Below are positions 3,469 to 43,017 of a stretch of 64,000 bases of DNA, piece by piece; position 1 is the first letter of the stretch; each line of letters begins with the position of its first letter. The position numbers were made by a program, and so were the translations under genes. The stretch lies in IMG/VR virus record IMGVR_UViG_3300049182_000044, positions 160,001-224,000 of that record, one strand, 5' to 3'. The notes under the pieces were generated by a model. That model did not search any database, was not told where the DNA came from, and worked only from the letters and a program-made list of their open reading frames with translations. This DNA is from a virus (taxonomy: Duplodnaviria; Caudoviricetes).

Positions 3469-4928
3469 TATCGCCTCGACATAGCTGAAGGAGCACGCTC
3501 AGTGTATCGAGCACTAATGCTCAAAGTTCCTAACTCGAAGTACGCCAGTGGATCATGCTTTCCATCCTCGTCTAGTGCGACGAGGTCTTCCATTGGCTCT
3601 GCGATCTCCATGTAGTCAACATCAATCGTAGCGCAATCCATAATGTCGTACAACGAAACACGCTTGCCCAGTGTATCGGTCGTGCGATTGAACAGTGCCC
3701 GGATGTTTGCTTCAACTACTGGCACAACTTCTTCAGGCATCGCATTGGCTTTTAGAGCCAGCGTAACGTCAATGTCACGCACGATCTTCCTTGGGTTGAA
3801 CTTCTGAATCTTGATTGCAGCATGAGACTTCGTTCCGAACCACTCTAAGAATGATTCCCATTCGCTATCGGAGAAAGCCTCTCCCTCTTCAGGAAGAATG
3901 CAGATACGAATCACGTTCATCCAACGAAGGTCTTTTGGAGCAATGTCCTTCTGCGCCTGAATGGTCACCGACGCAACACCTGGATACGAGGATGTGATTG
4001 CTCGATAGTCCGGAGGATTCACTGCGCGCTTACGTGCCTTGTAGAGATGCGGTGCCAGGAATTTGTAGTAGGTCGAATCTTTTTGATCTGCTCCACCCGA
4101 AATTACGCTCGTCGTTACACCTTGAATGTCAGGCGCTGTACTAAGCTGAATTTCAAGACCACGGCCACCGTTGTTGCCCACACGACCGTTAGTCGTAGTG
4201 TACGTGATGACGATGTTACTGCCGATTGACGGGAGACGGCCTGAATGCCCGTCACCGAACGCCAACACCGTGTCACCCAAGCCTGACGTAGCATCGTAGT
4301 ACACAGGATCATCTGGCCCGGCTGTCCAGATACCGTCGTCGATCACTTCCCACAGCTCACTTGTGTTAAGCGATGGGTTGACCAGCTCGACTTGAACGTC
4401 TGTATTCGATACGATGAATCCTGGCTCATTGAGATAAATTTCGCGGAACGAAGTCGAATCAGCTGGAATGGTTTGCGTCTTCACAGTGCCTTCAAACAGC
4501 TTGCCATCTGCCGTGGTTGCCCCAGCATTGAACATAATGGCGTTGCGATTGAAGAACGGCTGCCCGTTGACAGTGAACTGCGTGAACTTGGGTATTAAGC
4601 GCGGATAGGCCGAATCGCCTCCACGACTCAGCCTAACATCACATCCAGCAGGATTCTTTCGATTGATACGCACACCCAACATACGGGTGATCGCGTAGAT
4701 CGAGCTTTCACGAACAGCGGTATGAAGGAAGCCTTCACGCGCTGCAACTTCAACTGCGAATTGGTTAAATGTGCCAACCGCAGCCATCATTTCGATCAAC
4801 GTTTGACCAGTGGACGAGGTAAGCAAGTCGTTCCACGTTGCGCGTGAGTTCAGGAACAGCTGCAACTGAACAACCAAGGACTCGAAGTCTGGTTTCGTTT
4901 GCGATAGTTGTAATGGTACGCCAGCCAC
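3468..4928 (-). CDS. Baseplate wedge subunit (T4 gp6 / baseplate J-like)
   Basis: 486 aa, GTG start with GGAGGA SD; DFESLVVQL, TAVRESSIYAITRMLG, LAFGDG, GGAD, RAVNPPDY motifs of gp6. Confidence 0.85.
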   Translation of the reverse strand: MAGVPLQLSQTKPDFESLVVQLQLFLNSRATWNDLLTSSTGQTLIEMMAAVGTFNQFAVEVAAREGFLHTAVRESSIYAITRMLGVRINRKNPAGCDVRLSRGGDSAYPRLIPKFTQFTVNGQPFFNRNAIMFNAGATTADGKLFEGTVKTQTIPADSTSFREIYLNEPGFIVSNTDVQVELVNPSLNTSELWEVIDDGIWTAGPDDPVYYDATSGLGDTVLAFGDGHSGRLPSIGSNIVITYTTTNGRVGNNGGRGLEIQLSTAPDIQGVTTSVISGGADQKDSTYYKFLAPHLYKARKRAVNPPDYRAITSSYPGVASVTIQAQKDIAPKDLRWMNVIRICILPEEGEAFSDSEWESFLEWFGTKSHAAIKIQKFNPRKIVRDIDVTLALKANAMPEEVVPVVEANIRALFNRTTDTLGKRVSLYDIMDCATIDVDYMEIAEPMEDLVALDEDGKHDPLAYFELGTLSISARYTERAPSAMSRR

Positions 4929-4930
4929 GT

Positions 4931-5338
4931 TTATCCTCCGCTCTTCAAGTTAAAAGTGAACGACGCCGTCTTGTTTCCAAGTGCCGGGATGACGTACACC
5001 AACTCGACGTAATATTGTTGATTCGGGTAATCGGGGAGTACCTCAGCCTTTTTCAGGATGATGCGGTTCTCCCACCGCTCAATCGCTTCGATCAGTTCGC
5101 GCTTGATGCGCAAAACCGTCATGTCGTCCATTGGGTCAAACAGGATGTCCTGTAGCTCGGACCCGAAGTCTCTGCGAAACACTCGCGAAAACTTCTTCGT
5201 ACCAAGGATCGTGATGATCGACTTGTTGATCGAGTCCTCGTTATAAACAAGCTCCAAAGGACTCTCGGTATTGACGTCTAGGTTGACGTCTGAAAACACC
5301 ACCGAAGTAGCGTTCTTTGTAGCAGTTAGGATTTCCAT
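4931..5338 (-). CDS. Baseplate wedge subunit gp25-like (sheath initiator)
   Basis: 135 aa; SINKSIITILGT...RVFRRDFGS.L..ILFDP...AIERWENRI, GPW/gp25 family signature. Confidence 0.9.
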   Translation of the reverse strand: MEILTATKNATSVVFSDVNLDVNTESPLELVYNEDSINKSIITILGTKKFSRVFRRDFGSELQDILFDPMDDMTVLRIKRELIEAIERWENRIILKKAEVLPDYPNQQYYVELVYVIPALGNKTASFTFNLKSGG

Positions 5339-5371
5339 TTGACACCCTAATACGTTTTCTTCACATACCCT

Positions 5372-5381
5372 AAATTACGAT
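5372..5381 (-). promoter_or_regulatory. Putative phage late promoter motif ATCGTAATTT (copy 1)
   Basis: Exact 10-mer also at 17902, 35261, 47952; all intergenic, same strand, 29-74 nt upstream of a start codon. Confidence 0.55.
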
Positions 5382-5389
5382 AAGCGACT

Positions 5390-5686
5390 CTACGCACCGT
5401 TGACTGTGCAATTCGAGCTGCCTTCCATGTTTGATGATCCGCACTCGATAGAATCACCAACCCTAGCCCGCGCTTTACCGCCGGACGTAGCGTTTGGGCT
5501 TCCAGTGGCCTGTACGCTGTCGTGGCAACTGTCGGGATCACAATGAGTTACCCAGTGATCACCGACGCGCACTACAGGCTTACCATTGACCGTATGATTC
5601 GTGCTAGCACTGTCACAAATTCGAGAAGGGAATCCTCCGTGTCCAGTGCACAGATCCACGTTTTGACGAACTTGAGCTGGACACAT
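5390..5686 (-). CDS. PAAR-repeat spike tip protein
   Basis: 98 aa; DLCTGHG, VNGKPVVRVGD..HC, KARARVGDSIECG motifs with Cys/His metal ligands. Confidence 0.9.
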   Translation of the reverse strand: MCPAQVRQNVDLCTGHGGFPSRICDSASTNHTVNGKPVVRVGDHWVTHCDPDSCHDSVQATGSPNATSGGKARARVGDSIECGSSNMEGSSNCTVNGA

Positions 5687-5688
5687 AG

Positions 5689-6552
5689 CTATATCCTTTT
5701 CTCACTTAATTTTCCTGAAGTCCAGCTTCGTTTAATTGCTGCACTTAAATTTTTAGAAATTTTTTCTCGTTGAGCTTGAGTTCTGTTAGCGCCGGCTTTC
5801 TTAGCTGCATCGGATCTGATTTTCCGCATCCGCGACTGGTAGTCAGGGTCAGCCTTTTTACAAACTATACAACTTACCGTATTACTACGAATCATACGCC
5901 AAGGTAGGCGTTCGATGACCGATGCACAGTCCGTGCATCTGTAGTTGTGCTTAATTCGAGCACCTTGATATTCACCTAGGAGTCTCCATTTTCCACACTG
6001 AGTCTCCTTCAGCTTTCTGGAATAGGTACGGGTAGTGTATTTTGTTTCAGTTGAACCACCACCTTTATGGCCAAGCTTCTTAGCACGTAATTCTTCTTTC
6101 TGCTCATCGCTCAAGGAGGCGTAGTGGCTCCGAGTGCGCTCTGCCTGAGCCGCTCTTTGAACCCTACTCCAAGAGTATCCAACGCATCCTTCACCACCAT
6201 TCGTATGGTTAGCTAGTGGCCCTTCTTTTAAGTCACGGCGGCCTATTACTGCTATAAGACGCTTTTCAAGATCAAAAGCTGCTTTTTCGGATACACATTT
6301 GAAGACCCTGTAGCTAGGTAGTTCCCCAGTTTCTTTCTGTATCTTCCGGATAATATTCAGCTTAAGTTTGTTGATTGTTTCTAGCCTAAGAGGATTATTG
6401 AAATGGGAGAACAAGCGTCCTCCCTTTCCCTTTCCGACGTAGAACGGCTCGTGTTCAAAACGATATTTCCCGTACTTACAAGAACCCTTGCGTGAGTCTA
6501 ACAGTACATAAACATAAAAGTCGTTCACGTCTTGTCGTACCTGAGCTGGCAT
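5689..6552 (-). mobile_element. Free-standing GIY-YIG-family homing endonuclease gene
   Basis: 287 aa; FYVYVL..YVGKGKGGR..H, E..LI..IGR.....GPLAN.T.GGEG (GIY-YIG/LEM3-like), C-terminal Zn-ribbons; visibly AT-richer than flanks; sits inside baseplate operon. Confidence 0.8.
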
Positions 6553-6553
6553 G

Positions 6554-6967
6554 TCATGTTACCTTTCCATTTGTTACGAATCCGTGCCAGCCGCAGCCGC
6601 CCATCAAAAGGACTGAGCGGGCGCCACCGCCTGGTACAGCAGGATTATCGCCGTTCAACGTCAAGTCGTGGTAGCCAGTTCCTTCCAGAGTCCAACGTCC
6701 TGGACGAGGACCAATCTCTTCTGGAGTACCTCGGCTACGCGACCAACACATGACGCGATGAGTACCTTTGTCGCCACCGTTCTTTGTGAAGCACACAGGG
6801 CACAGGAACTGAATGCCCTGTGCTTCCTCGATGCTATCTACTTTATGGATCAAGCTGACGGGGCGAGTAACTTCCTTGATTTCCCCGTCCTCGTGCACCT
6901 TGAAGGTGTCCATTTTGTATTCGTGACGAATGAAGCTCGGTTTCAAATCAGTAAGATTCAGTTCCAT
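6554..6967 (-). CDS. Small Cys/His (Zn-binding) protein, DUF6527-like
   Basis: 137 aa; FLCPVC...H...RW...GCGWHGFV pattern; family assignment from memory. Confidence 0.45.
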   Translation of the reverse strand: MELNLTDLKPSFIRHEYKMDTFKVHEDGEIKEVTRPVSLIHKVDSIEEAQGIQFLCPVCFTKNGGDKGTHRVMCWSRSRGTPEEIGPRPGRWTLEGTGYHDLTLNGDNPAVPGGGARSVLLMGGCGWHGFVTNGKVT

Positions 6968-6981
6968 GATTACCTCAGTGG

Positions 6982-7983
6982 TTAAATACCGCCGCCACCT
7001 CCGCCGCCTTGTTGCTGGTCATCTTCATCTTCAGGCTGATTTTCACCCTTCGCATTGCCTGGGAAGCCCGGCCAATCTTTTTCAGTAGTGAGATCAGGAG
7101 TTTCAGGAGTGTTTGCAGGATCTTGAGGTTGTGCAGGAGAATCAGGAGAAGGACTGCCCTCTTGATCTCGCATGAAGCCTGCGTTGTTGATCTGATCACC
7201 TGAAACTTCGATATTGGAGTTGCCTCCAGTTGAATGTTTCCAGTTACCACCAACAGACATCTTCGCGTCTGCGCCTACCGATTCTTCCTGCTTACCGCCA
7301 GTAGTCAGTACAACATCACCCTTGACTGTACCATTGAAGTTACCTTGAATGGTCTCAGCCTTATTGCCGCGAATGACTTCTGTCTGGTTACCGACGATGA
7401 ACTCTTCCTTGTTACCATGAATAATCTCTTTCAGATTACCCTTGATGTGAACTTCCTTGTTGCCTTCGATGACTTCAGTAACGTTGCCTGTGACTGTGAG
7501 CTGCGTGTTACCTTCGATGTACACCTTCATGTCACCTGGATTGCGAATGAACAGCTCATTCGTCTTGGTGTCATACAAGGTGATTGCTTTGTTTTGCAGA
7601 CGCATGGCGATAATACGATCAGGATAGTTGTGCTCCATCTCTTTCATCGCCGTTTTCTTGCTAACGGGATAGCCCATCCACATTGGATTGTCGTCCGATC
7701 CCTCCTGAAACACTAGCAGGACCTTCGATCCCACTTTAGGGATGTAGGCCATGCCAGAGTTTTTGGTAGCACCGTCCCAATGATCGAACATCGGGATGGC
7801 CCAAGGCAGGTGATCGTCTTCGATCCCATCGAACAGGATTGGTACACGCGCCTTGATTCGGCACATGTACTTTCCTTCCTTCTCCTTGCTATCGTCGTTC
7901 TTTACCACCGTGGCCTCGTACCGATATTCCTTAGTGAGGCCCTGGGGCATCGCCATGTCCCTGGAGATATTCAAGAGTGACAT
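6982..7983 (-). CDS. Baseplate central spike, gp5/gpV-like (OB fold + beta-helix, no lysozyme)
   Basis: 333 aa; RIKARVP..LPWA..YIPKVGSKVLLVFQEG...P.W.G OB-fold, then 8-residue E.I.GN repeats. Confidence 0.88.
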   Translation of the reverse strand: MSLLNISRDMAMPQGLTKEYRYEATVVKNDDSKEKEGKYMCRIKARVPILFDGIEDDHLPWAIPMFDHWDGATKNSGMAYIPKVGSKVLLVFQEGSDDNPMWMGYPVSKKTAMKEMEHNYPDRIIAMRLQNKAITLYDTKTNELFIRNPGDMKVYIEGNTQLTVTGNVTEVIEGNKEVHIKGNLKEIIHGNKEEFIVGNQTEVIRGNKAETIQGNFNGTVKGDVVLTTGGKQEESVGADAKMSVGGNWKHSTGGNSNIEVSGDQINNAGFMRDQEGSPSPDSPAQPQDPANTPETPDLTTEKDWPGFPGNAKGENQPEDEDDQQQGGGGGGGI

Positions 7984-17873: not shown

Positions 17874-17901
17874 GTTTGCTCCTAAAAAGTTCTACTACGT
17901 T

Positions 17902-17911
17902 AAATTACGAT
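17902..17911 (-). promoter_or_regulatory. Putative late promoter motif ATCGTAATTT (copy 2) upstream of sheath
   Basis: Exact repeat of motif, intergenic. Confidence 0.55.
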
Positions 17912-29585: not shown

Positions 29586-30332
29586 TCAGAACTGTGAAGG
29601 GTTCAGCAGATGCGGACCGATCGCTGTGACGTAAGAGGGATTCGCAACGACGCTTGTCTCGAAGCCCACAATGTCGTGGCACTGGCGATAGGACAAACGG
29701 CCTTGCGGAGTTTGATACGTTGGACGACGCGGGTAGGTGTGTTCGCACGGCTTGCTGTTCATGCCTTGACCGACATGCGCGTTGCAGATCGAGCAAGTGT
29801 ACGACTTGAAGTAGAAGCCTACCGAGTATGCATTGTTGTCTTTCTTGAGAATCGAGTTGACCAGCAGTGGATCCTTCGTGCGGTCATAAGCCATCAGCTC
29901 GACCAGCTTGTAGTAACGACCGCCGCCGAAACGCTTGAGCGGACGCAGAAACACATCGAGGATCACGCCCTTGGCTTTCTCGATGATCTTGTTGTCGTGT
30001 TCCAGATGGCAGGGCTTGCCACGGAATGTCTTAAACGCCTGCATACCCATTTCAGGGTTGAATTGCATGAACTCTTGCAGGGTCACGCTATCACCATTGG
30101 TATTGGGAATTTCTGAAAACATTACCGGAACAGGAACGAGAACATAGTCGCGAATGTCGGTGGACAAATTGTACTTCTTCGCAGCCCAGGGCAACCATAA
30201 GTTTGCCTCAATAGTACCGCCTTCGCTCATACCCGCTTGCTTTGCAGCCTGCTCCGGATCTTTGTACATCTCTACGGCTGGCTCACCAAATCCAAAACAT
30301 TGGCTAATGAATTGCTCACTTACGTTTTTCAT
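29586..30332 (-). CDS. Prohead (capsid maturation) protease
   Basis: 248 aa; PNTNGD, HLEHD (His), KGVILD, YSVG (Ser), CSIC...CEH insert, FETSVVANP: HK97/U35-type fold pattern. Confidence 0.7.
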   Translation of the reverse strand: MKNVSEQFISQCFGFGEPAVEMYKDPEQAAKQAGMSEGGTIEANLWLPWAAKKYNLSTDIRDYVLVPVPVMFSEIPNTNGDSVTLQEFMQFNPEMGMQAFKTFRGKPCHLEHDNKIIEKAKGVILDVFLRPLKRFGGGRYYKLVELMAYDRTKDPLLVNSILKKDNNAYSVGFYFKSYTCSICNAHVGQGMNSKPCEHTYPRRPTYQTPQGRLSYRQCHDIVGFETSVVANPSYVTAIGPHLLNPSQF

Positions 30333-31281
30333 CTAGGGTTCCTCTTCTAGAAATCTTAAAGTCGTGTTCCCACATAACTATTAAATTATAGCCCAAGGAT
30401 CGGATCAGATCTTCCCGTTCAAGTGTTTCCTTGTACAGGCGGCCAGCGGTTTTATTGCTAAACGGGTTTGGTTTTGATCTAGGTGAATGCTTCCTCGGAT
30501 TGCCGTGAAAGTCGTCACCGTGAAATTCAAATACGGTCTTACTTAACGCATGGTATCCATCTACTCTAATTCGCGTTCCTGGAATGCGAAACTCTCCGCC
30601 CTTTCTAGCGTGTTGCACCTTACGCAACTTCCTACGGCGCGCTTCAGCTTCAATCCAAGCTATCGCCATTGAGGAACTTCCATTGCAGCATCCTTGACAA
30701 CCGTGACCAGCTAAATGCGAATAGGTGTATTGATAGAAGGGTCCATGCTTTTCACAAATGATCTTTACCTTCGTATCTGAGTTCTTGTACTCTGTTTCTG
30801 AGTAGTCGTATCTTGAGCCATGCTTTTTCTTAGCGGCTCTAATGAATTCTTCCAGACTACCTGAACGATGCTTTGAAACTGATTCATACCCACATGACGG
30901 ACAGCCGAACCCAGCTAAATGGTCACTGGGGGTTTGAGGAAATGATCCGTGCTTTTTGCAAACGATCTCAACCTTAACAGAATTCTTTCGGTAGTCTACC
31001 TTTCGATAGTCATATTTAGATCCATGCACCTCTACAGCCTTCTTTATGAAAGCCGGAGTCGAAGACCTTAACTTACTAGATATGGAAAGCTTCTTACACT
31101 CGGGGCATCCGCTTCCACCCAAATGGTTCGTAGGTGATTGCCAGAAGGCTCCGTGGCTCCTGCAAATTATTTCAACTTTCACGGCGGCGCCAAGGTAATC
31201 TGTCTTAGCATAAGAATATTGCGTCCCATGCTTTTCCTTAGCTCTGCCTATCCACTCTTTAGTGGTTATCACTTTAGGCAT
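30316..31281 (-). mobile_element. Homing-endonuclease-like gene: DUF723-type Zn repeats + C-terminal Vsr/PD-(D/E)XK nuclease
   Basis: 321 aa from ATG 31281 (GGAG); three HG..YDY....Y......V.IIC..HG.F.Q....HL.G.GC..C repeats, RVDGY...FEFHGD.FHG...GYNL..MWE; AT-richer. Confidence 0.8.
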
Positions 31282-31383: not shown

Positions 31384-31782
31384 TTATAGATCGATCTTGA
31401 TCTTGATCTTGTTCGAGGACATTGAAGGATGCGGACTAATCTTCATTGTCGGGAAATGTTCAATCGGCCTGAGACCGAAGTAGCGATTGTCTTCAGACGG
31501 AAGCTTGTGCTTTGCAGGGCCACTTCCAGAAGAAGGAGTACCGAAGGCTTTAGCACGTTTACGCTTCGTTTCTTTCTTCTTCGGTGAGGTCTCGATGTTG
31601 ATATTTTCGTCCTTTTCAGGAGGATTCAGCTGATCGTTTGTGCGCCTGAACTTAGGATTGTGCGTGATCGGGTTGTCACCGAAGTAATGAAAGTCACCAT
31701 TCGGCACCACATTCTTCAATGTCTCCAGATCGCTTTCAGGTCGTGCGTAACCAGCGAGTGAAATTCTGATCTTACTCTTCAT
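31384..31782 (-). CDS. Basic hypothetical protein with MKSKIRISLA tag
   Basis: 132 aa, ATGA overlap with upstream gene. Confidence 0.6.
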   Translation of the reverse strand: MKSKIRISLAGYARPESDLETLKNVVPNGDFHYFGDNPITHNPKFRRTNDQLNPPEKDENINIETSPKKKETKRKRAKAFGTPSSGSGPAKHKLPSEDNRYFGLRPIEHFPTMKISPHPSMSSNKIKIKIDL

Positions 31783-35187: not shown

Positions 35188-35260
35188 GGAAATTCTTCCT
35201 TAACTGGATAGATTAGAGACGTAAGATGACACGCAAGACCTAGTTTTGCGTTATGTGGAT

Positions 35261-35270
35261 AAATTACGAT
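35261..35270 (-). promoter_or_regulatory. Putative late promoter motif ATCGTAATTT (copy 3)
   Basis: Exact repeat, intergenic after ligase terminator. Confidence 0.5.
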
Positions 35271-38150: not shown

Positions 38151-38618
38151 TTACGTGCGATGAATGCTGTGAATGACAGCGTTCAGCCATTTAGGCATCG
38201 ACTGATGCAGAGCATGAATTTTTGGGATGCTGTCGAGCACCGGCCGGAAGTAAGCCGTGTCCGTCTTTTCTTCCGTATAGGAGACGCCACCATTCGGGCC
38301 AATGACTTGTGCGTTCAGGAGCGGAGCCGGTGACAGTTCCTCGTACTTCATTTTCGCCACGTTACGGAAGCCAAACAGGAGTTCAACTGTCCAGTCTGCA
38401 TCGACTGTGTGACGATACACCCAGACCTTACCTTCTTTGGTTTCCTGAGGGTAGACCTGATCACCACGATTCGAGTCTTTAGCGATCTTGCGAAGAGTCT
38501 CACGCAACGTCATAATCATTTCTTGCTGCTCTTGCGTGGTACGCAGACGGGCACCGGCCTCAGCACCAGCAGAAGGTTTCGGTGGACGGGTAGCACTCAG
38601 GCTTACTTTGATCTTCAT
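38151..38618 (-). CDS. Hypothetical protein with MKIKVSLS tag
   Basis: 155 aa from ATG 38618 (GGAG, ATGA overlap). Confidence 0.65.
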   Translation of the reverse strand: MKIKVSLSATRPPKPSAGAEAGARLRTTQEQQEMIMTLRETLRKIAKDSNRGDQVYPQETKEGKVWVYRHTVDADWTVELLFGFRNVAKMKYEELSPAPLLNAQVIGPNGGVSYTEEKTDTAYFRPVLDSIPKIHALHQSMPKWLNAVIHSIHRT

Positions 38619-39577
38619 GGCATTCTCCACTCTGCAAATACAGCTGGACTGATGTAGCTTTGCAGAGCAATTGTTGGGGTGTTACCGAGCTTGGCAGCAA
38701 CCTTCTTGGCCACCGCGAGCACCATCTTGCGGTACTCTTTCTCGTTCGCCGGTTTCTTTTCGGACTTACGCACTTCGTCCAGTGCGGTGGCGGTACCCAA
38801 ATGAGTCCGGAAGTCCTTGGTCTTGAAATGCCCACCATCGAGTGTATGGGTATAATCAAGCAACTTCTTCTCGTTCAAATTCGGGAACAGCTTTCCGTCC
38901 GGGCCGGCTTCCTTGGCACGACGTTTCAGCATGTTGATCGCATCTTTGTCATCGACCTCGATATTGAGATCAACACCCTTCTTGCCAGTGAAGCGCAGGA
39001 AGACCTTGCCGTCCTCGATCACAACATGCTCGCCTTTCAGATTGGAAGCGCCGTATGCTTTCTTTTCAGCACCGGTGTCTGCGTCTGATCCTGGACGAAG
39101 GCCGGTCTTCATAATCAGCATCATGCAATCAGCACAGTCCTTCTTACGCGGAGTCTTAGAACGTCGTGCCTTCTCGTTCTGTTCGTGAATCGCATCGAAC
39201 TCTTCAGCGAGTGCTTGTACACGAAGGAACTTGGCTTCAGCCTGAGTCTTCATGAAGGCATCCGAATAGATCGGTTGCAGACGTCCTTTTGCATCACGCC
39301 CGGTAACGAGCAGGTCAGCATTCGGATCGGGATTGATACGCACATCACTCCAGCCGGGTGGAATGCCCAGCTTCTGGATGTGCTCAGGCAGCGGAGAACC
39401 ATCTGCCATCACGCGCTTCCCATCCACGACTTGCGTTTCATGTTCAGGACGAGCTGCGCGACGGCTCTTAGCGTACTTGGAGTTAGGATGTTCCGTAACG
39501 TACTTATCCTGCTCTTCTTTGGTCAACTCCTCAAACCAATTCTCGTTTTCTTTTGAAAGTGCGATTTGGATTTTCAT
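38615..39577 (-). CDS. DNA topoisomerase IB (bacterial/poxviral type) with MKIQIALS tag
   Basis: 320 aa; IPPGWSDV.I, GRDAKGR.Q.IY, GLRPG, FTGKKG, KDFRT, LGNT....QSYI: full catalytic pentad. Confidence 0.93.
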   Translation of the reverse strand: MKIQIALSKENENWFEELTKEEQDKYVTEHPNSKYAKSRRAARPEHETQVVDGKRVMADGSPLPEHIQKLGIPPGWSDVRINPDPNADLLVTGRDAKGRLQPIYSDAFMKTQAEAKFLRVQALAEEFDAIHEQNEKARRSKTPRKKDCADCMMLIMKTGLRPGSDADTGAEKKAYGASNLKGEHVVIEDGKVFLRFTGKKGVDLNIEVDDKDAINMLKRRAKEAGPDGKLFPNLNEKKLLDYTHTLDGGHFKTKDFRTHLGTATALDEVRKSEKKPANEKEYRKMVLAVAKKVAAKLGNTPTIALQSYISPAVFAEWRMP

Positions 39578-40128
39578 AATTCGTATTCTTGTAAGCTCAA
39601 AACTCTAACGACCTCAATAGGGCTTTCAGAATAAGCGATAACTTCCTTCTGACCTAGGTAGGCATTAGCCATCTCGTCTAGTTTAGCAACCATACGATTA
39701 CCCGGCAATCGTTTTTTAACAAACGGAAGCACGCGCTTTACTACCCAGCTACCATTCACGACTTCATGCACACGGTCTTCGACCTTCATAACGTAGCAGC
39801 ATTCATAGCCATCAAGAGCACCTATCGAATCCGCTAAGTCTCTCCAGAATGCTTTTCCCGTACCGAACGTAAAACTCAAAACACGATTCGACTCAAGCGT
39901 CATCTTTTCAGGAAGAGGTGTATAGGAACCTATTACTCGGTACAGAGGCTTGTCAATCGGCACGTATGGAACGCTGTCAACTAGTGGCTTGAGGATTTTC
40001 TGCACTTCCACAGGATGTCTATAGCGCTCGTCTAGTCTGTATGACCCTTCAAAGAAGGAAGACAGCCAATCGCAAGCTCTATCTAAAGCGATATCTTGTG
40101 AGGAACTTAAACTGATTTTGATCTTCAT
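39574..40128 (-). CDS. ADP-ribosyltransferase-like protein with MKIKISLS tag
   Basis: 184 aa; LYR, SFT, QKEV in R-S-E order. Confidence 0.5.
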   Translation of the reverse strand: MKIKISLSSSQDIALDRACDWLSSFFEGSYRLDERYRHPVEVQKILKPLVDSVPYVPIDKPLYRVIGSYTPLPEKMTLESNRVLSFTFGTGKAFWRDLADSIGALDGYECCYVMKVEDRVHEVVNGSWVVKRVLPFVKKRLPGNRMVAKLDEMANAYLGQKEVIAYSESPIEVVRVLSLQEYEL

Positions 40129-41265
40129 TTAGAAACCCTGTTTTGCTATCAATTCTTCTTTGCCGAAACTTGTGTAGTAGTCGGTAGCCGACATCCACAC
40201 TTCCTTTTCCTGCGCTTGCGTTGTCTTGATCTTGAACGTGTCCACCAGCTTCGAGAAGTCCAAAACGAAATCAGCTGGTCGCAGTTCTTTCTTGAATACC
40301 GCAATCGCCTCACCGGACTCCAAGTCCTTCACCGCGTTCAACGCAATGTGTGGATCAAGAGAATACGGAAGTTGTTTGCCTTTGCGTCCATCGAAGCCAT
40401 TCACGCGACCTTTGAGGCGACCTGACCGATCAAACTTCTTCAAGTCCTCTTCGGTCATAATGACAGCGCGATAGATACTCTTAACCCTGGGTGGTGAGCG
40501 GAACTTGTCTGCCAGTTCGTGCTTGGTAATCCTCGTCATCGAGGCGGTAACGTCACCGAACATATCGAGATACGTCTGCACATCGGATTCAAAGTTCTCG
40601 TCGAAGTCGGGAACCAAGGTTGCTGCCACCGCGTCCATCGGCACCTTGTACTTTGCAAACAGCTTGTGCAAGTAATCGTCCTGAGCTTTCGTTAAGGTCT
40701 TACCTTTGCTCAACTGTTCGCCAATGTTCTTCACGAACTTGGTATCGTAGTCATTGAACTTTGTATGGTGCATCTTCCACAGGAAGCGTGTTCGTGGGTA
40801 CAACGTCTTCGGGTCTTTCGAGACGTATGCCTGCTCCTTCGTGTATGGAACGTGTTCTTTGACAGGCATCGCATACCGATACTTCGCTGCGTTCTCAAAC
40901 TCAGCTGGCTCGATGTGGATGGTCTTCAACGTGCGTCCTGTACCTGCAAGGCGTTGCTCGATTTCCGGCAGCTTGTGATACGGGCTAGTGACGAACACCA
41001 ACACGTTACCCAAACGCAGACGACGCAGTTTCTCCGGTTGCCAATCCCAGCCTACAAAAGACTGTTTCGACAAGTAAGCAATGTCTCCGCCGTTATCGCT
41101 ATCTCGTTCCTGATGCGGGACAAGGATGTACGAATCAGATGGGTAATCAATGCCCCAAGCGACGGGTACCTTGAATACGTGAATCAGACGCTCCTTCTCA
41201 GGTACCCAATAGAAGAAGTCCGGCTTATTCTGTGGCGCAGAAGCTAGCGCAACTTTGATTTTCAT
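40129..41265 (-). CDS. Two-domain protein, C-terminal ADP-ribosyltransferase-like, with MKIKVALA tag
   Basis: 378 aa from ATG 41265 (GGAG, ATGA overlap); IYR, YSLD..IA, QEKEV (E-x-E). Confidence 0.5.
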   Translation of the reverse strand: MKIKVALASAPQNKPDFFYWVPEKERLIHVFKVPVAWGIDYPSDSYILVPHQERDSDNGGDIAYLSKQSFVGWDWQPEKLRRLRLGNVLVFVTSPYHKLPEIEQRLAGTGRTLKTIHIEPAEFENAAKYRYAMPVKEHVPYTKEQAYVSKDPKTLYPRTRFLWKMHHTKFNDYDTKFVKNIGEQLSKGKTLTKAQDDYLHKLFAKYKVPMDAVAATLVPDFDENFESDVQTYLDMFGDVTASMTRITKHELADKFRSPPRVKSIYRAVIMTEEDLKKFDRSGRLKGRVNGFDGRKGKQLPYSLDPHIALNAVKDLESGEAIAVFKKELRPADFVLDFSKLVDTFKIKTTQAQEKEVWMSATDYYTSFGKEELIAKQGF

Positions 41266-41759
41266 GGTGTTCTCCAAAGAGGCCCTGGGATGAAATGTCC
41301 CGATTGAGCTATTACACCGTTGCTCAAATGACCTTCTAGTTCTTTGCCGATGTCTTGTACTTTGTAGGGTGGGAAGAACAGGTGAACCAACACCTCAACG
41401 TCACCACGTACTGCACGAATAGCCTTTACACGATTGAGCCCTTCGTAATCTCGGACCTTTGCATCGTCCCAGATCGGCTTCATTTCGTTGCTCTTCAGTT
41501 CAATGTCGATCCAAGGGCTCGCAATGGCGTCACCCTTTTCAATACTCTCACGATAGAACTCTTCAGTGAGCGTCTCCTTGTTATCGACAGGGAGAACCAG
41601 TTCGATGAAAGTATTGGCCTTCATCAGCACGGTCAGACCAACCGCAGCTTCCTTATTGCGTTGGGTCGTACCGTAGCCAGCTTCCTGATCGTAGCGAATG
41701 CCATACACGAAGGCTTCTTTCGACAACGAGGTAGAGAATAATGGAATTTTGATCTTCAT
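41262..41759 (-). CDS. ParB/Srx-like protein, paralogue A (MKIKIPLF..SLS tag variant)
   Basis: 165 aa; IASPW..IEL, EGLNRVKA (GxxRxxA). Confidence 0.45.
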   Translation of the reverse strand: MKIKIPLFSTSLSKEAFVYGIRYDQEAGYGTTQRNKEAAVGLTVLMKANTFIELVLPVDNKETLTEEFYRESIEKGDAIASPWIDIELKSNEMKPIWDDAKVRDYEGLNRVKAIRAVRGDVEVLVHLFFPPYKVQDIGKELEGHLSNGVIAQSGHFIPGPLWRTP

Positions 41760-41761
41760 GA

Positions 41762-42310
41762 TTATTGCCAGAGTGGACCACGAACGAAACGACCATGTTG
41801 CCCTTTGATGCCTTTACGCAGCCCTTCGATCATTCCTTCTGTGAGGTGTTTGTTATTGTCCAAATTACTGAAAGTGATGTGAACAAGCACGGGAACACCG
41901 CCGTGAATATCGGATATGGCTTTCATGCGATTGCGTCCTTCGTGCCCCGAAATGTAGGCGCCGTCCACAACCTTGTCACGGCCGTCTTCACCCAGTTCAA
42001 TGCGCAGCCATGGACTTGCGATTGCACCACCGTTTTGAATATGCTCTTTGATGTGCGTCAAATTAGTTGCCTCTGCGCTACCGATCAACAGAGGGTAGCA
42101 CAAATCAAGGAACGTACTCGGAGCCATCAACACCGAGAAACCCTTATGCCCCACTTCCTGATTGTGCGGTATGGCACCGAGACCTTTTACTTGATCGTAC
42201 TGGATACCGTGCAGCTCGTGGCGCAGAGCACGGTTCAGAACTTCAGCCATAGTTAGGAAACGGCCTTGACCGGGCTTCGTATCAGAGGAGAGGGCGATTT
42301 TGAGTTTCAT
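41762..42310 (-). CDS. ParB/Srx-like protein, paralogue B (MKLKIALS tag)
   Basis: 182 aa; IASPW..IEL, HEGRNRMKA, ends GPLW like paralogue A. Confidence 0.45.
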   Translation of the reverse strand: MKLKIALSSDTKPGQGRFLTMAEVLNRALRHELHGIQYDQVKGLGAIPHNQEVGHKGFSVLMAPSTFLDLCYPLLIGSAEATNLTHIKEHIQNGGAIASPWLRIELGEDGRDKVVDGAYISGHEGRNRMKAISDIHGGVPVLVHITFSNLDNNKHLTEGMIEGLRKGIKGQHGRFVRGPLWQ

Positions 42311-42326
42311 GATGTTCTAATGGGAA

Positions 42327-42350
42327 TGGGTGACCCCGAAGAGCCACCCA
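42327..42350 (-). terminator. Stem-loop with cUUCGg tetraloop
   Basis: TGGGTGGCTC TTCG GGGTCACCCA on minus strand. Confidence 0.7.
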
Positions 42351-42356
42351 AGTTTC

Positions 42357-42731
42357 TTAATTGCCGGACTGCGCATCCTTGGCGTCTGCCTTCATCATAA
42401 CGGCGTCTGCTTTGTGCTTGTCTTTGAATGCAGTCAGTGTACTGAGTGCATCATGCCACACGTTCGAACCTGCAGACCCCAACAGACCTACGATCAGGAT
42501 CGACTGGAGGAACGGCAAGTCCTTCAGGAAGATGATTGTGTCAGGAGGATTCAGTACAGCAGCGAGCGCTGAAGTGGCGAACGTGATGCCTTGCAGAACA
42601 GCGACACGTACTTTTTCGTTTTGCAGCTTGTTCAGATCAACAACTGCTTTGATGGACGCGGTAATGCGTTCAGCAACAGCTGCGATCAGACCGAGATACA
42701 CAACGATTTCAGTGATAGACGATTCAAACAT
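42357..42731 (-). CDS. Putative holin-like membrane protein
   Basis: 124 aa, three hydrophobic helices, GLLGSAGSNVWHD motif, charged C-terminus. Confidence 0.45.
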   Translation of the reverse strand: MFESSITEIVVYLGLIAAVAERITASIKAVVDLNKLQNEKVRVAVLQGITFATSALAAVLNPPDTIIFLKDLPFLQSILIVGLLGSAGSNVWHDALSTLTAFKDKHKADAVMMKADAKDAQSGN

Positions 42732-42771
42732 AGTTACCTCTCAAGTTATGCTCAACTAGAGCAATTCGTTA

Positions 42772-43017
42772 CTACTTAGGACGGTATCCTTGCTCGTCTT
42801 CATCATCGTACCACGCGACGATCTCTCCATTTGCGGCGTTGCGAATGATGTTCAGAGGAGGATCTTTAACGTCGTTCTTCACATGGATGTGCAAACGTGT
42901 CTTCACATACTCAATAAAATCAAGAAGGTCTTCACCATGAGTATTGGGTGGATGACGATCCATGAAATCGTCAATGTCATCTTCACGTTTGCCGGAGAGT
43001 GCGATTCTGAGCTTCAT
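42772..43017 (-). CDS. Small acidic protein with MKLRIALS tag
   Basis: 81 aa. Confidence 0.65.
   Translation of the reverse strand: MKLRIALSGKREDDIDDFMDRHPPNTHGEDLLDFIEYVKTRLHIHVKNDVKDPPLNIIRNAANGEIVAWYDDEDEQGYRPK

Follow-up and report, generated by a model that had tools for sequence, protein, structure and literature searches.

The window discussed here, the whole 64,000-nt stretch of DNA that was analysed, is contained in a 281.6-kb (281,566-nt) jumbo phage record. Its minus strand carries a run of tail genes in the order gp5-like spike, gene X, GIY-YIG open reading frame (ORF), PAAR spike tip, gp25 and gp6-like wedge.

Organisation of the locus

The gp5-like central spike gene (6982..7983; like all genes of this run, on the minus strand) combines an OB fold with Gp5_C repeats (Pfam PF04717, PF22178 and PF06715). 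Between it and the PAAR gene lies gene X (6554..6967), which encodes a Cys-containing protein of 137 aa and has homologues directly 5' of PAAR in relatives that lack the nuclease. Together with its counterpart in a relative (L015:153-802), it represents a fast-evolving, Cys-rich protein without a family. The GIY-YIG ORF (6552..5689, 287 aa) starts with MPAQVRQDV and continues with NDFYVY. It is followed by an intact, gp5.4-like PAAR spike-tip gene (5390..5686, 98 aa; PF05488, phrog_281), which starts with MCPAQVRQNV and continues with DLCTGH, and by the gp25-like baseplate wedge gene (4931..5338; PF04965).

The genes are tightly packed, with 1 nt between the stop codon of gene X and the ATG of the nuclease ORF and 2 nt between the nuclease stop codon and the ATG of PAAR. 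A Shine-Dalgarno-like AAGGT is embedded in the last codons of gene X, 8 nt 5' of the ATG at 6552, and a similar AAGGA lies in the last codons of the nuclease ORF, 7 nt 5' of the PAAR ATG. Both motifs may work as ribosome-binding sites, and translational coupling of the nuclease to gene X is plausible. No match to a sigma-70 promoter was found in 5300-7100. The G+C content of the nuclease gene is 44%, compared with 49-54% in its neighbours. A 10-nt motif, TCGTAATTTA, occurs three times on the minus strand of the window (5371-5380, 17901-17910 and 35260-35269) against an expectation of 0.05 copies; it is intergenic at the inspected sites, is kept between PAAR and gp25 in relatives, and is likely to be a late promoter.

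A duplicated gene start

Codons 2-9 of the nuclease ORF and codons 3-10 of PAAR are identical at 20 of 24 nt, and the repeat stops exactly after a Val codon (GTG) common to both. Three of the four mismatches, in the Gln, Val and Arg codons, are synonymous, and the fourth separates Asp from Asn. In a six-frame scan of the 281,566-nt genome, no other stretch of this length matched the octapeptide at more than 5/8 residues. The two starts also form the sole 7/8 pair among 5,529 neighbouring ORF-start pairs, those at 6/8 coming from one paralogue family. The repeat is therefore not a product of chance, and its description in an earlier, purely sequence-based note on this DNA (four mismatches in 24, three of them synonymous) is confirmed, with the addition that it is unique in the genome. 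A separate Logan assembly carries an identical nuclease protein, with the genes in the same order and at the same distances, so an assembly artefact is improbable and was rejected. Elsewhere in the window (~38600-43000, minus strand), neighbouring ORFs have a common N-terminal motif, MKIKIxLS, with similar starts at 31782 and 34105; these are apparently a paralogue family or have a shared leader.

The locus can be divided into the following parts, all on the minus strand. Nine codons at 6526..6552 form an in-frame leader of the nuclease, followed by the nuclease gene body at 5689..6525. The downstream copy, with an extra Cys and an Asp-to-Asn change, occupies ten codons at 5657..5686. The register distance between the copies delimits a putative cassette of 869 nt (5657..6525), comprising the nuclease and the downstream start.

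The ancestral start of the PAAR gene

To which gene the duplicated codons originally belonged can be judged from alleles that lack the nuclease. The closest PAAR relatives were traced to their contigs, which gave nine distinct loci with PAAR proteins of 96-98 aa that are 71-81% identical to that of this phage. The nuclease is absent from all nine, and PAAR starts between -16 and +3 nt from the upstream stop codon. It lies directly 3' of a gene X homologue in eight loci and of gp5 in one; in L027, gene X is missing altogether. The PAAR proteins of L016 and L035 begin with MPAQVRQDV and match the nuclease leader in all nine residues; in L035, the PAAR gene follows gene X after 1 nt, just as the nuclease ORF does in this phage. 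These two loci are also the closest to this phage in gp5, gp25 and gp6 (72-75%), with a support of 100/100 for the gp6 clade.

The nuclease homologues give the complementary picture. Neither PAQ nor QVR occurs in the first 40 residues of any of 71 homologues, and in 29 of 64 the first strand follows within five residues of the start. Five begin with MNDFY, so that leader codon 9 (GTG) occupies the position of the nuclease's own Met (ATG). In the AlphaFold model of the nuclease, residues 1-8 have pLDDT values below 50 and the first strand starts at residue 12. Taken together, comparison of the alleles shows the leader to be of the ancestral PAAR type, an original start that would have been stranded in front of the nuclease, with the downstream copy as its apparent replacement. 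Exact removal of the 869 nt (6525-5657) yields a PAAR of 97 aa, the length found in most relatives.

Several proposals of the earlier note are borne out by these alleles. It had placed the insertion about nine codons into PAAR, and nuclease-free phages do start PAAR at this position. That the nuclease took over the original start position of PAAR is supported by the nine nuclease-free loci and by the L016 and L035 starts, and that a second 5' end keeps PAAR intact agrees with the complete 98-aa gene and its own start. Its title, however, described the nuclease N-terminus as a recoded copy of the PAAR start, which inverts the relationship (its own reasoning had it right), because the PAAR proteins of L016 and L035 share the leader peptide and the nuclease homologues do not have it. 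Neither of the two observations that the note had named as refuting its proposal was made.

The nuclease

The nuclease belongs to the LEM-3-like GIY-YIG family (PF22945, above cut-off, E 1e-11), an assignment accompanied by conserved columns and fold matches. Its catalytic domain spans approximately residues 12-122, and Y13, Y15, Y38, G40, R46, E96 and N115 are intact at invariant or near-invariant columns. The modelled fold is like that of the GIY-YIG domains in both PD-T4-3 and UvrC. Of the solved structures, the defence nuclease PD-T4-3 comes closest, with a similarity confined to the catalytic domain (30% over ~100 residues). The C-terminal region, a possible counterpart of the variable DNA-binding part of such nucleases, is basic and helical with CxxC pairs, a sub-threshold Zn-ribbon match and low pLDDT at residues 163-234. 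Many homologues carry NUMOD3 tails, which are typical of homing endonucleases, and the annotation of some phage homologues names a homing or intron endonuclease. The ORF itself combines several features of a free-standing homing endonuclease: a GIY-YIG domain, optional presence in relatives, no intron or intein, and its own stop codon.

Start capture is not a family trait, since four loci with homologous nucleases (BcepSaruman, BCSR5, BcepSauron and L032) have no duplicated downstream start, and none of them adjoins PAAR. A scan of 5' starts likewise found no duplication at the other nuclease genes of this genome (the second GIY-YIG gene, an HNH gene at G000 ~90.6-91.1 kb and the gene at 30316-31281 of the window). 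The second LEM-3-like GIY-YIG gene lies outside the window (G000:C1 ~149800-148949, minus strand), has similar C-terminal repeats, and is frameshifted between the first strands and the FYVGKG motif. The gene at 30316-31281 (minus strand) encodes a repeat array of CxxHG zinc fingers (DUF4379) with a PD-(D/E)XK-like domain at the C-terminus, overlaps the start of the next gene, and is a probable further homing endonuclease gene.

A second occupied allele was sought in several ways. A protein search and tblastn of phage GenBank found the nuclease at this site in no second phage. Scans of IMG/VR for the nuclease, for gene X and for two degenerate patterns of the junction, as well as a nuclease-HMM scan of ~100 PAAR loci, produced no further occupied allele, and a profile search of protein representatives returned distant PAARs only.

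Origin of the arrangement

The earlier note described the new 5' end of PAAR as recoded. PAAR starts of the same MC type (MCPAQVR) are present in two relatives (P0098 and P0099), both at nuclease-free loci; as such starts occur naturally without the nuclease, de novo recoding by the element was rejected. The divergence pattern instead favours a second natural allele, which the replacement start probably is. The donor could not be placed, as no PAAR branch is well supported in the trees, and the DNA does not allow either copy to be traced to a lineage, given PAAR identities of only 70-81% even to the nearest relatives. Gene X and, weakly, PAAR group with L015 and gp6 groups with L016 and L035, which implies that the X-PAAR patch has been exchanged between lineages, probably by transfer into L015.

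The main competing account of the repeat is a local duplication, in which illegitimate recombination placed the nuclease gene into PAAR codon 9, duplicated a target of ~27-30 nt, and the copies then drifted. Each copy finds its best match in the other (20/24, compared with at most 19/24 for any sampled relative, all of which are distant), and the extra Cys could have arisen in place, given that MP and MC starts alternate among relatives as close as L028 and L034. An unconstrained leader should, however, have accumulated amino-acid changes. The leader has none relative to the L016 and L035 starts, and it differs synonymously from the working copy in three of seven otherwise identical codons. 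In a toy simulation, the best probability was 0.31 for two constrained working alleles and 0.017 for a neutral leader that arose by local duplication (~18:1), a ratio that presupposes the ancestor and the neutral leader of the model and would shrink with selection on the translation-start region. The insertion would also have had to create, at once, a correctly spaced ribosome-binding site and start. On balance, we regard local duplication as unlikely, although it is the strongest of the competing accounts.

It is still less probable that the locus is a static scar, formed once by ordinary mosaic recombination, with a nuclease that cuts elsewhere, is inactive or has been domesticated. Such a history would suit the single known occurrence, the exchange of the X-PAAR patch between lineages even without the nuclease, and the resemblance to PD-T4-3, by which the domain family is seen to have other roles. 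It sits poorly with the intact catalytic residues and with the absence of the nuclease from each of the nine related loci, which is what a selfish gene would show; moreover, many homologues carry NUMOD3 tails, and the likeness to PD-T4-3 is limited to the catalytic domain. A spliced intron or a bypassed insert, whose removal would restore the original PAAR frame, is the least credible of all. The 97-aa product of an exact removal would indeed start like the PAAR of L016 and L035. However, there is no Rfam group I or II match in 4800-7400, and there is no non-coding room for a ribozyme core because the ORF fills the whole insert. Only one register within the repeat would satisfy the group I rule (exon ending in U, intron ending in G), and it abolishes the ATG; RNA folds at both junctions are no better than shuffles, and PAAR is already complete with its own start. 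The intron was rejected on the missing Rfam match and the failed splice-site rule, in keeping with the earlier note, which had seen no group I or II intron structure.

The reading that we favour, with somewhat better than even confidence, is an intron-less homing cassette of 869 nt, consisting of the nuclease and a donor PAAR start, that made a gene hybrid. The donor phage would have carried a free-standing GIY-YIG gene just 5' of an intact PAAR, as segC is carried in T4. A mixed infection may then have brought it together with a related phage carrying the empty allele, whose PAAR gene would have been cut by the nuclease, or have recombined with its gene, in the 5' portion. On the downstream side, homology-directed repair inside PAAR would have brought in the donor PAAR start along with the ribosome-binding site that the last nuclease codons contain. 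The upstream side would have been joined at a TG microhomology between recipient PAAR codon 9 (GTG) and the nuclease start codon, without further homology because gene X is very divergent among these phages (25-47% identity, compared with 70-80% for PAAR in the same relatives). For homing in T4, one-sided repair with junctions at microhomologies has been described (PMC2988022). The nine PAAR codons of the recipient would thereby have been stranded in frame and become the nuclease start site beside the stop codon of gene X, from which translation would begin at 6552, and PAAR would be translated from the donor start without splicing. From then on, the layout could spread by homing with ordinary two-sided repair to alleles that share this gene X.

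A stronger version holds that the 869-nt unit is an active and precise homing cassette directed at the first PAAR codons, which cuts the empty allele, repairs it with a start that is immune to cutting and is itself expressed from the host start. We regard this as possible but rather doubtful. Immunity of the resident allele to re-cutting is plausible. A cut site within PAAR would be one candidate, and free-standing nucleases of T4 often cut hundreds of bases away (PMC2988022). The earlier note had also called the spike tip essential, which is overstated: gp5.4 of T4 is dispensable for assembly, and keeping PAAR whole matters because gp5.4 confers a ~1.55-fold fitness advantage per cycle (PMC12407873). 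As such, the interpretation first offered for this locus is partly supported.

Comparison with known elements

The closest parallels come from fungal mitochondria, where mobile endonuclease ORFs (mORFs) make gene hybrids in atp6 of Allomyces macrogynus and in atp6, atp9, cox2 and nad3 of Glomus (PMC3630166). Furthermore, free GIY-YIG genes are found duplicated with the atp9 N-terminus (PMC7487136), and N-terminal duplications have been described in Tremella fuciformis (reviewed in PMC8393795). As at the present locus, an intron-less endonuclease gene lies in a coding sequence between a stranded native end and a replacement end, the host gene stays functional, and the two ends differ mostly at synonymous sites. 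The replacement end of the fungal mORFs is foreign; here a foreign origin is favoured by the synonymous-rich divergence and the natural MC starts. In contrast to the fungal cases, most of which replace the C-terminus, the host is a structural gene of a jumbo phage, the 5' end is duplicated over nine codons only, and the stranded end is reused as the nuclease start. The mobility of mORFs has been demonstrated, whereas here it is proposed from sequence. The suggestion in the earlier note of a splicing-free way to occupy a coding sequence therefore holds in that there is no intron and PAAR is whole, but the layout itself had already been described in these fungal mitochondria.

Among phages, the nearest counterpart is segC of T4, a free-standing GIY-YIG gene whose product cleaves in genes 5.1 and 5.3 (PMC2988022). 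It resembles the present gene in being free-standing and apparently promoter-less and in filling the same slot, between the gene after gp5 and PAAR (5.4), and the Seg genes in general likewise borrow the translation signals of their neighbours and are patchy among relatives. The subfamilies differ (PF22945 here, PF19835/PF01541 in T4), and T4 has no stranded copy of the PAAR start (best match 4/9). At the T4 locus (L033:1697-2292, segC and 5.3), gene 5.3 matches the I-TevI DNA-binding/NUMOD1 domain, so that segC and 5.3 together look like one split endonuclease gene directly 5' of 5.4. Homing endonuclease genes also occupy coding sequences without splicing in the gene-splitting insertions of mobE in nrdA of Aeh1 and of mobA in gene 39/60 of T4 (PMC2988022). 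These insertions leave two fragments that reassemble as proteins, whereas here the replacement start rebuilds the whole gene. Keyword look-ups showed no mention of the layout in a T4 review or in a survey of phage homing endonuclease genes, and keyword searches of the open-access literature, a scope outside which most subscription journals fall, found no description of it in phages.

Implications

To summarize, the locus is, as judged by comparison of alleles, a real phage variant of an element type known from fungal mitochondria, and the empty alleles support this well. A single locus by itself changes little. It nevertheless offers a clean and short example of how a free-standing homing endonuclease may enter a gene at a new position and leave that gene alive, and its scar suggests what an as yet uncharacterised GIY-YIG subfamily may target. 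Because the window itself yields the empty allele once the 869 nt are taken out, a test of cleavage and immunity would be direct. If the cassette proves to be active, it might represent a general third route, besides introns and inteins, into prokaryotic and phage coding sequences, in which the duplicated codons mark the target.
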